Source: Escherichia phage ph0011. Taken from it: 64,000 bases of DNA. The stretch is from the sequence record OP557969.1. One strand, given 5' to 3'. How positions within the stretch are numbered: position 1 is the first letter of the stretch; the number at the start of each line of letters is the position of its first letter. A program made the position numbers and the translations under genes. Under the pieces are notes generated by a model. It made no database searches and had not been told where the DNA came from. It saw nothing but the letters and a program-made list of their open reading frames with translations. Below, piece by piece: positions 60,214-60,546 of the stretch.

Positions 60214-60546
60214 ATGCTAAATCTAAACATTCAAGGCAACATTGATATCACTCCAGCAATCCAAGATGCTATTTACAATGAAGCAAAAAGTCTGGATAAG
60301 TACCGTACTTCTTCAGTACTAGACATTGGTGTTCATGTTAAGAAAGAGCATAAAACTCAATATGCTGTAACTTTAACTGCTGGTAGTAAATCAGTGACTG
60401 CTGATGATGCTGATTTGTATAAAGCAATTGTTGAATCTTTTGATAAGATGGAAACTGTATTCAGTAAAGACAAAAGCATTAAATTGCACCGCCGAAACCA
60501 CCCAGAACATCCAGTTCTTGATGATTTGACAGAAAACGAAGAGTAA
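60214..60546 (+). CDS. ribosome hibernation promoting factor (HPF/RaiA family) homologue
   Basis: MLNLNIQGNIDITPAIQDAIYNEAKSLDKY ... ADDADLYKAIVESFDK collinear with bacterial HPF (MQLNITGNNVEITEALREFV ... GQDMYAAIDGLIDK). Confidence 0.75.
   Translation: MLNLNIQGNIDITPAIQDAIYNEAKSLDKYRTSSVLDIGVHVKKEHKTQYAVTLTAGSKSVTADDADLYKAIVESFDKMETVFSKDKSIKLHRRNHPEHPVLDDLTENEE

Follow-up and report, generated by a model that had tools for sequence, protein, structure and literature searches.

Does a giant coliphage make its own ribosome hibernation factor and, if so, what would such a protein do to the ribosomes of the infected cell? This question is raised by a small gene at positions 60214-60546 of a 64,000-nucleotide stretch of Escherichia phage ph0011 (OP557969.1), the whole of which is called the window below. 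A preliminary description, made from the letters of the window alone, had taken the 110-residue product for a phage-encoded homologue of the ribosome hibernation proteins HPF/YfiA. That the copy is phage-borne is clear: the source genome is that of a phage, and the window DNA shares 80-95% identity with the Asteriusvirus jumbo coliphages of ~350 kb (121Q, PBECO4, UE-S1, Ecwhy_1 and others). We find that the gene encodes a genuine, highly diverged HPF/YfiA (PF02482) member of the short, tailed type, with a RaiA-like architecture. The gene had thus been recognised correctly but was already known, and novelty is low because orthologues are already annotated and phage HPFs were published as a class in 2019. 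Our additions are the RaiA-type geometry of the tail, a set of shifted basic residues, deep synteny, an apparent operon with a lysozyme gene behind a perfect promoter, and a further promoter embedded in the 3′ end of the gene. We consider it most likely that the protein occupies and protects idle 70S ribosomes of the host in the manner of RaiA, a view that we hold with about even confidence.

The phage protein is a diverged member of the HPF/YfiA family

The gene, its translation signal and the two parts of its product lie as follows.

60200-60207, + strand: Shine-Dalgarno-like sequence AAGGTAGG, recognised from its letters, 6 nt 5′ of the ATG of the HPF-like gene
60214-60546, + strand: open reading frame (ORF) of the HPF-like gene, ATG start, 110 amino acids
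60214-60498, + strand: HPF/RaiA core domain, residues 1-95, supported by PF02482, the structural model, Foldseek matches in the PDB and the signature residues
60499-60546, + strand: C-terminal tail, residues 96-110 (HPEHPVLDDLTENEE), with the stop codon; net charge -6, predicted to be disordered

A ribosome-binding site is annotated at the equivalent place in the records of phages UE-S1 and Munch. The two peptides by which the protein had been recognised, MLNLNIQGNIDITPAI and DLYKAIVESFDK, are both present in the product. Two short overlapping ORFs, 60357-60479 (- strand) and 60404-60529 (+ strand), were considered and set aside as being without support.

The homology proposed in the preliminary description was borne out by profile, fold and signature residues alike. 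In the profile search that had been suggested there as a check, PF02482 (Ribosomal_S30AE) was matched with an E value of 2.5e-10 and 41.4 bits, well above the gathering score of 23.7 bits, and residues 5-87 of the protein cover positions 2-84 of the 88-position profile. A sequence search of the PDB with the phage protein returned HPF/RaiA chains exclusively, down to an E value of about 0.2. When a profile of the phage clade was used instead, E. coli HPF was matched at 2e-6 (30.9 bits) and RaiA at 2e-4 (24.4 bits); the sequences of both E. coli proteins were verified against the PDB. Among phage protein families, phrog_34864 ('unknown function') matches all of residues 1-110 of 110 (E=6.7e-62). 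A Pfam match to Dodecin (19.5 bits, under the cut-off of 22.5) was set aside, since HPF/RaiA is indicated by profile, PDB and fold searches alike.

The fold agrees with this placement. An AlphaFold2 (AF2) model built on a 53-sequence alignment has a predicted local distance difference test score (pLDDT) of 83 and the topology β1-α1-β2-β3-β4-α2, with β1 at residues 2-8, α1 at 14-30, β2 at 36-46, β3 at 49-56, β4 at 59-65 and α2 at 68-95. This alignment-based model was used in place of a single-sequence model, which had a pLDDT of 58 and no strand 4 and was dropped. In a Foldseek search of the PDB, the 37 best matches were all HPF, RaiA, pY or RafH; E. coli HPF on the hibernating 100S ribosome (6h4n) was matched with a TM score of 0.82 and a root-mean-square deviation of 1.6 Å. 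The residues that we took as the family signature, namely the Thr of E-I-T-x-A, the Asp-x-Tyr at the start of helix 2 and the equivalent of Lys80, are present as T13, D67, Y69 and K78, and their columns are invariant or at least 90% conserved in the 53-sequence alignment.

The C-terminal tail has the geometry of RaiA

E. coli has both a short HPF and a RaiA, and the core sequence does not assign the phage protein to either: identities of 27% to HPF and 25% to RaiA, like the profile scores given above, are too close to decide. The tail is more telling. Past helix 2 the sequence runs ...KLHRRNHPEHPVLDDLTENEE. Its Arg93-Arg94 pair stands 26 residues after the Asp of D-x-Y, a spacing identical to that of R95-R96 in RaiA. 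The 16 residues after the pair carry a net charge of -6, compared with 17 residues in RaiA, the last 16 of which (past Ala97) have a net charge of -5. From residue 96 onwards the AF2 model has a pLDDT of 51-69 and no secondary structure. The tail is conserved throughout the clade of 121Q and its close relatives (the 121Q clade) and into the Munch-type clade, and its non-synonymous divergence does not exceed that of the core, which makes it at least equally constrained. A basic stretch followed by an acidic end is also common to many cellular family members of 105-125 residues.

In RaiA, the tail heads towards the pocket of RMF and is thought to exclude RMF (PMC10502375), which would explain why RaiA prevents, and the tail-less HPF promotes, the formation of 100S ribosomes. 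By analogy, we infer that the phage tail may extend towards the RMF site as well. Judged from the sequence, the phage protein is RaiA-like in architecture, although its core is marginally closer to HPF.

The comparison with the three cellular types can be made more specific. E. coli RaiA (YfiA, protein Y; 113 residues against 110) shares with the phage protein the fold, the EITPAI, D-x-Y and K80-equivalent motifs, and the Arg-Arg pair with an acidic disordered tail. Unlike RaiA, to which it is 25% identical, the phage protein lacks equivalents of R17, R23, K26, R83 and K91 and has invariant basic residues of its own on the β2-β3 hairpin; its gene is viral and has a constitutive-looking sigma70 promoter, whereas the expression of raiA is stress-regulated (PMC10502375). 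E. coli short HPF (YhbH, 95 residues), the partner of RMF in 100S formation, has the same fold and partly the same basic track on helix 2; however, it is only 27% identical and ends with helix 2, where the 110-residue phage protein adds its conserved tail. The long HPF of Gram-positive bacteria (~185 residues) has a homologous N-terminal domain, as matches in Listeria, Bacillus, Lactococcus and Staphylococcus attest, but the phage protein is without the C-terminal dimerisation domain. With 110 residues and no second domain, it could not form 100S dimers by the route of the long HPF.

Ribosome-contact residues are partly kept and partly replaced

Whether the phage protein could still sit in the canonical site was judged from its contact residues, for which the lists of rRNA contacts of enterobacterial HPF/YfiA were taken from a cryo-electron microscopy preprint (bioRxiv 10.1101/2025.10.07.680626). 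Along the basic track of helix 2, tested at positions 80, 83, 87, 89, 91 and 93/95 of the E. coli numbering, K78, K85 and K87 are kept, and R93/R94 correspond to R95/R96 of RaiA. In helix 1, K29 is retained, and likewise Y30. The 121Q clade has, besides, invariant basic residues that are specific to it: K43, K44, H46 and K47 on the β2-β3 hairpin, K59 on β4 and K70 at the start of helix 2. These three regions touch rRNA or uS9 in known complexes (10.1101/2025.10.07.680626). The net charge of the core is +1 in the phage protein, -1 in E. coli HPF and +3 in the RaiA core. In our reading, the positive charge of the phage protein would have been redistributed and not lost; given this redistribution, we rate binding at the canonical ribosomal site as somewhat better than an even prospect, and no higher.

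Several observations weigh against a RaiA-like action on the ribosome. The equivalents of R83 and K91 are replaced by T81 and I89 (the latter with K90 adjacent to it), and R83 is a residue that contacts m4Cm1402 in enterobacterial HPF/YfiA (10.1101/2025.10.07.680626). In helix 1, the phage protein has Q17, E23 and S26 at positions where Lys/Arg is found in 0% of the 121Q clade versus 74-85% of the other homologues; position 26, which has thus lost its basic residue, is a phosphate contact in enterobacterial HPF (10.1101/2025.10.07.680626). The NCBIfam models are matched under their cut-offs, with 36.3 bits against 40.9 for the yfiA family (TIGR00741), 22.5 against 125 for the HPF equivalog (NF007780) and 19.5 against 158 for the RaiA equivalog (NF007654). 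Taken with the Pfam score, these values make the phage protein a member of the HPF/YfiA family and the equivalog of neither host HPF nor host RaiA. Part of the conservation of the tail, namely Leu-Thr and the fixed four residues after it, is likely to be imposed at the DNA level, since the codons TTG ACA are kept as the -35 element of the embedded promoter described below. The acidic character of the tail is not explained by that promoter. From experiment, the HPF of phage rV5 was absent from salt-washed 70S and 100S ribosomes of E. coli, in which the 100S level was unchanged (PMC6375957); the rV5 type is the only phage HPF tested so far, and high-salt washes were used in that work (PMC6375957). 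For the 121Q-type protein itself, we found no functional study and no expression, timing or binding data in the literature.

Orthologues and other phage lineages of the family

Eleven sequenced phages encode a product that differs from the phage protein in a single residue (99.1% identity), and the annotated orthologues are 82-99% identical to the phage protein. The RefSeq name of the 121Q (gp533) and PBECO4 orthologues is "HPF/RaiA family ribosome-associated protein"; other depositors have used "ribosome hibernation promoting factor", "ribosome-associated inhibitor A" and "sigma 54 modulation protein/S30EA". A genome paper on phage Sharanji places an HPF-like gene among the translation-related genes (PMC11895373). 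Previously, Mizuno et al. (2019) described PF02482 proteins from rV5-like phages and from GAP32, a related jumbo phage, noted a possible long-branch artefact for the GAP32 protein, and proposed that a viral HPF might compete with host factors and so prevent the formation of ribosome dimers (PMC6375957).

How far the lineage extends was seen only with an exhaustive profile search; a word-indexed homologue search had given just 14 close relatives, and the profile search was needed for the other clades. Over 1.84 billion cluster representatives, it found 63 proteins at E<1e-3, with the 121Q type forming a single 50%-identity cluster. After that cluster, and leaving aside two entries (P0014 and P0015), the next-best matches were proteins of ~105 residues from other jumbo phages, with 67-53 bits. 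P0014 is a truncated member of the 121Q clade. P0015 (1605 residues) was rejected as a homologue, its summed score being a misleading product of a tandem repeat of a half-domain-like unit. This protein has ~29 tandem copies of a 54-residue unit that resembles the β3-β4-helix 2 half of HPF, for which either a faulty assembly or an unusual kind of repeat protein may account.

Other lineages occur in the Rak2-like jumbo phages. In Salmonella phages Munch, 7t3 and SE_PL and in Klebsiella phage fENko-Kae01, a "ribosome-associated inhibitor" is annotated that is 73% identical to P0016, a protein itself ~30% identical to the phage protein. The copy of Erwinia phage Hallingskeid is 47% identical to the phage protein, and that of Cronobacter phage GAP32, matched by structure, 18% identical. 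Like the 121Q type, the HPF-like proteins of these phages (Munch/7t3, fENko-Kae01, Hallingskeid, GAP32) have 103-111 residues and a basic stretch with an acidic end, in the pattern ...K-R-x... L-T-E/D-x-E/D-E. Their genes share the same terminator and embedded promoter, with lysozyme upstream and the CCA-adding enzyme downstream. They differ in their low identity (18-47%), and the Munch type keeps K26 and often R17, both of which are lost in the 121Q type.

The gene order supports an old relationship. Large contigs encoding proteins ~30% identical to the phage protein (P0016 and P0017) carry, in order, a 2H phosphoesterase, one unannotated gene, lysozyme, HPF, the CCA-adding enzyme, NUDIX and glutaredoxin, and the window has matching neighbours in 2H-SAK at 58697, LysM-lysozyme at 59238 and the CCA-adding enzyme at 62645. 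From this synteny and the ~30%-identical copies in other jumbo phages, the HPF-like gene is, on comparative grounds, an old component of the Rak2/121Q-like jumbo phages that has been passed on vertically, rather than one captured recently from E. coli.

A different history is suggested for the rV5 type. A tblastn search of our phage collection with E. coli HPF gave 130 records, most of them rV5-like, with copies 42-44% identical to host HPF. The rV5-type HPF (Vequintavirinae, 105 residues) resembles the 121Q type in being a phage-borne PF02482 protein of large E. coli myoviruses that is annotated as a hibernation factor. It differs in its 42-44% identity to host HPF, versus 27% for the 121Q-type protein, and in belonging to phrog_8990, which the 121Q-type protein matches at E=3e-6 only. 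The higher identity to host HPF suggests that the rV5 type is a more recent capture from the host.

Outside this lineage the gene is rare: a scan of IMG/VR with the alignment of jumbo-phage HPFs returned only 121Q itself and one other 366-kb contig. Separately, we noticed an uncultivated HPF-like protein of 111 residues (P0020, at loci L004-L006) with a KSIKL-x-x-R-H motif in common with the 121Q clade. Its gene has only unannotated neighbours, on short contigs (none of those listed is longer than 16.5 kb), and the phage collection holds no counterpart above 36% identity. Its sequence may represent a further viral HPF lineage.

Among Asteriusvirus orthologues, the pairwise ratio of non-synonymous to synonymous substitution rates (dN/dS), calculated from unsaturated dS values only, was 0.04-0.27. 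In the core, the proportion of non-synonymous differences (pN) was 0.10-0.27 versus 0.40-0.67 for synonymous ones (pS), and purifying selection acts along the entire length. Three Salmonella phages, SD-1_S14, SD-6_S16 and SD-15_S21 (L016-L018), were considered as cases of gene decay. Their records have differing deletions of 37-180 nt across the lysozyme and HPF genes, and the genomes are ~10% short; we read these deletions as probable assembly artefacts and not as a sign of dispensability.

The gene is the last of a predicted two-gene transcription unit

The HPF-like gene follows a lysozyme gene at a distance of only 16 nt (stop to start), and the pair is framed by the following signals.

59126-59153, + strand: predicted sigma70 promoter, TTGACA-16 nt-TATAAT with a TG-extended -10, upstream of the lysozyme-HPF pair
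59186-59212, + strand: leader element GTAGAAAGTCC-N-GAGGCTTTTGC, which could pair into a 9-bp hairpin; 3′ of the promoter and 5′ of the lysozyme start
59238-60197, + strand: gene with LysM and phage-lysozyme domains (Pfam: Phage_lysozyme 40.9 bits, LysM 21.5 bits)
60526-60554, + strand: second predicted sigma70-like promoter, TTGACA, 17 nt, TATACT; 11/12 match
60555-60588, + strand: intrinsic-terminator-like hairpin with an 11-bp stem and a 5-nt loop, then TTTTCTT; predicted end of the lysozyme-HPF unit

The promoter at 59126-59153 is the sole 12/12 match to the sigma70 consensus in the window, and its -10 and most of its -35 are conserved in 121Q, UE-S1, Ecwhy_1 and Turkey5. The lysozyme ORF was listed from a TTG at 59238; from alignment with annotated orthologues, its true start is probably a TTG near 59271, ~33 nt further on, after AAGGAGG. 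At the other end, the RNA of 60540-60600 folds with -17.1 kcal/mol (z=-3.0). A hairpin with a T-run lies 3′ of the HPF gene in all ten orthologous loci, with differing stem sequences, and is annotated as a terminator in UE-S1 and Munch. Lysozyme and HPF, with HPF last, thus seem to form a unit of two genes under a strong promoter of the host type.

Between the promoter and lysozyme, the leader element is invariant in all nine aligned loci, including those of distant jumbo phages whose HPF is ~30% identical. No covariation was seen across the nine loci because the pairs never vary. The element is without an Rfam match and occurs only once in the window, and in a scan of IMG/VR with a loose pattern most matches were due to chance. 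It could act as a regulatory RNA, bind a protein or belong to a type of promoter specific to the phage.

The second promoter is embedded in the HPF-like gene: its -35 TTGACA forms the codons of Leu105-Thr106, and its -10, which varies by locus (TATACT, TATAAT, CATAAT or TACAAT), lies just 3′ of the stop. The codons TTG ACA are kept for Leu-Thr in nine of ten orthologues (one has TTG ACT), while synonymous sites are saturated between clades; given the codon usage of the phage, the chance of TTG ACA is ~0.095 per lineage. In a locus whose tail is without Leu-Thr (L003), TTGACA is displaced to just past the stop codon. As the terminator hairpin comes directly after this promoter, transcripts from it would begin inside the hairpin.

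Promoters of this kind are frequent in the window. With at most one mismatch, 16 sigma70 matches lie on the + (coding) strand and one on the - strand, against 3.3 expected per strand. Near-consensus examples are the following.

+ strand: 1510, 10484, 18546, 20124, 27172, 49586, 50635, 51658, 59126, 60526 and 62027

Their abundance on the coding strand gives the appearance that this jumbo phage relies heavily on promoters of the host type, or of its own RpoD type; phages of this group encode their own RpoD-like sigma factor (PMC11895373).

Neighbouring genes

Nucleotide metabolism and functions of the RNA-repair type are represented in the wider neighbourhood of the HPF-like gene, by NrdD, thymidine kinase, PhoH/PIN, RlaP, a 2H phosphoesterase and the CCA-adding enzyme. 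The last three were located as follows.

48290-49522: RlaP-family nucleotidyltransferase
58697-59107: 2H phosphoesterase, a sub-threshold Pfam match
62645-63757: CCA-adding enzyme

Scattered around HPF, such genes suggest a theme of tRNA and RNA damage repair. The related contig L001 additionally has an RNA ligase. The window itself, over its 64 kb, has no tRNA genes. Between HPF and the CCA-adding enzyme lie two adjacent, slightly overlapping ORFs, 61687-62100 (137 residues) and 62087-62509 (140 residues), with the common C-terminal motif QY.FIDDTF..D. Over 42 residues the two share 40% identity (pairwise E=3e-8), and on this similarity they look like tandem paralogues.

Discussion

The present analysis places a RaiA-like member of the HPF/YfiA family in a predicted operon with the lysozyme gene of a jumbo coliphage, and a scheme for its action can be proposed. 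The gene would be co-transcribed with LysM-lysozyme from the perfect sigma70-type promoter, with transcription ending at the intrinsic terminator. Its product would probably enter the channel for mRNA and tRNA in the host 30S subunit, at the decoding region of the A and P sites, and thereby occupy vacant 70S ribosomes, using the lysine/arginine track of helix 2 and the central β-sheet for insertion. By analogy with RaiA, and here we are more tentative, Arg93-Arg94 and the acidic tail might run to the RMF site, so that the ribosomes would stay 70S monomers instead of becoming RMF/HPF 100S dimers. It is conceivable too, though short of an even prospect, that ribosomes bound in this way are shielded from nucleases attacking 16S rRNA, as the hibernation factors of E. 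coli protect against YbeY and RNase R (PMC7913689). For a slow phage of 350 kb, the benefit would be a preserved and quickly reusable pool of ribosomes in starved or defence-activated hosts, which would fit with the neighbouring genes of RNA and tRNA repair (RlaP, 2H phosphoesterase, CCA-adding enzyme).

Other explanations of the same gene have to be weighed against this RaiA-like protection of idle ribosomes. The fold may have been put to a new use, in which the canonical 30S site is no longer bound and the protein acts on another RNA or protein target or as a decoy for host factors. The loss of the helix-1 basic residues and of the R83 equivalent, the gain of the invariant K43, K44, H46, K47, K59 and K70, the scores under the NCBIfam cut-offs, the separate PHROG of 'unknown function' and the negative ribosome experiment with rV5 HPF (PMC6375957) could all be understood in this way. 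However, T13, D67, Y69 and K78 are retained along with most of the helix-2 track, the new basic residues lie on the β2-β3 hairpin and β4, which are rRNA-contacting regions in known complexes, and the overall charge of the core is unchanged; we therefore regard a change of target as unlikely. A cooperation with host RMF at the same site, as practised by short HPF, would lead to 100S dimers and shut translation down late in infection or in superinfected or starved cells. The marginally closer core (27% vs 25% identity, 30.9 vs 24.4 bits, TM 0.82) speaks for it, but the short HPFs that partner RMF stop at helix 2 (95 residues), whereas the phage protein has a conserved extension of ~15 residues with the Arg-Arg pair and acidic end of the RaiA type, the very feature thought to exclude RMF (PMC10502375). 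Nor do 100S dimers have an obvious benefit for a lytic phage, and we think this role highly unlikely.

The timing of expression that the promoter might imply could also be read in favour of host shut-off or selective translation. As an early product, the protein would block initiation on free host ribosomes, like RaiA in cold shock, while other phage factors would let the phage messages escape. The strongest consensus sigma70 promoter of the window does lie upstream of the gene, RaiA blocks the access of tRNA to the A and P sites and hence initiation (PMC10502375), and related phages encode an IF3 homologue, tRNAs, tRNA-modifying enzymes and other translation genes (PMC11895373). But HPF and RaiA bind vacant ribosomes and have no known means of discriminating phage from host mRNA, and a stoichiometric inhibitor would throttle the synthesis of phage proteins too, which makes such a role quite unlikely. 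Finally, the reading frame might be retained mainly for the promoter in its last codons and the terminator directly after them, both serving the neighbours, with the protein as dispensable baggage. This is hardly credible in view of purifying selection over the whole length (core pN 0.10-0.27 vs pS 0.40-0.67) and of a full domain kept at ~30% identity across genera.

A bolder reading, which we rate as somewhat unlikely, would make the protein a viral anti-hibernation and ribosome-shielding factor. Produced at once on infection, it would out-compete host HPF and RMF, keep 70S ribosomes in a state from which they can be reactivated, and cover the decoding region and 3′ end of 16S rRNA. If this were true, the cover would act against host nucleases or ribosome-directed defence toxins, the shifted basic residues would reflect an adaptation to reversible, competitive binding, and a slow jumbo phage could replicate in starved or stationary-phase cells.

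As a discovery, the present work is the re-finding of an annotated gene; its details are useful for the design of experiments and leave the category of the finding unchanged. Phage hibernation factors have been known from sequence since 2019, and their sole biochemical test, made on the rV5 type, was negative. The 121Q-type protein is a good test case on account of its deep conservation in one jumbo-phage lineage, its RaiA-like tail and its RNA- and tRNA-repair neighbours. If it binds ribosomes, it would show a giant phage parking, protecting or de-hibernating the ribosome pool of its host in the course of a long infection. Such a role would, if true, matter most in cells that are not growing, in which phage therapy is often unsuccessful.

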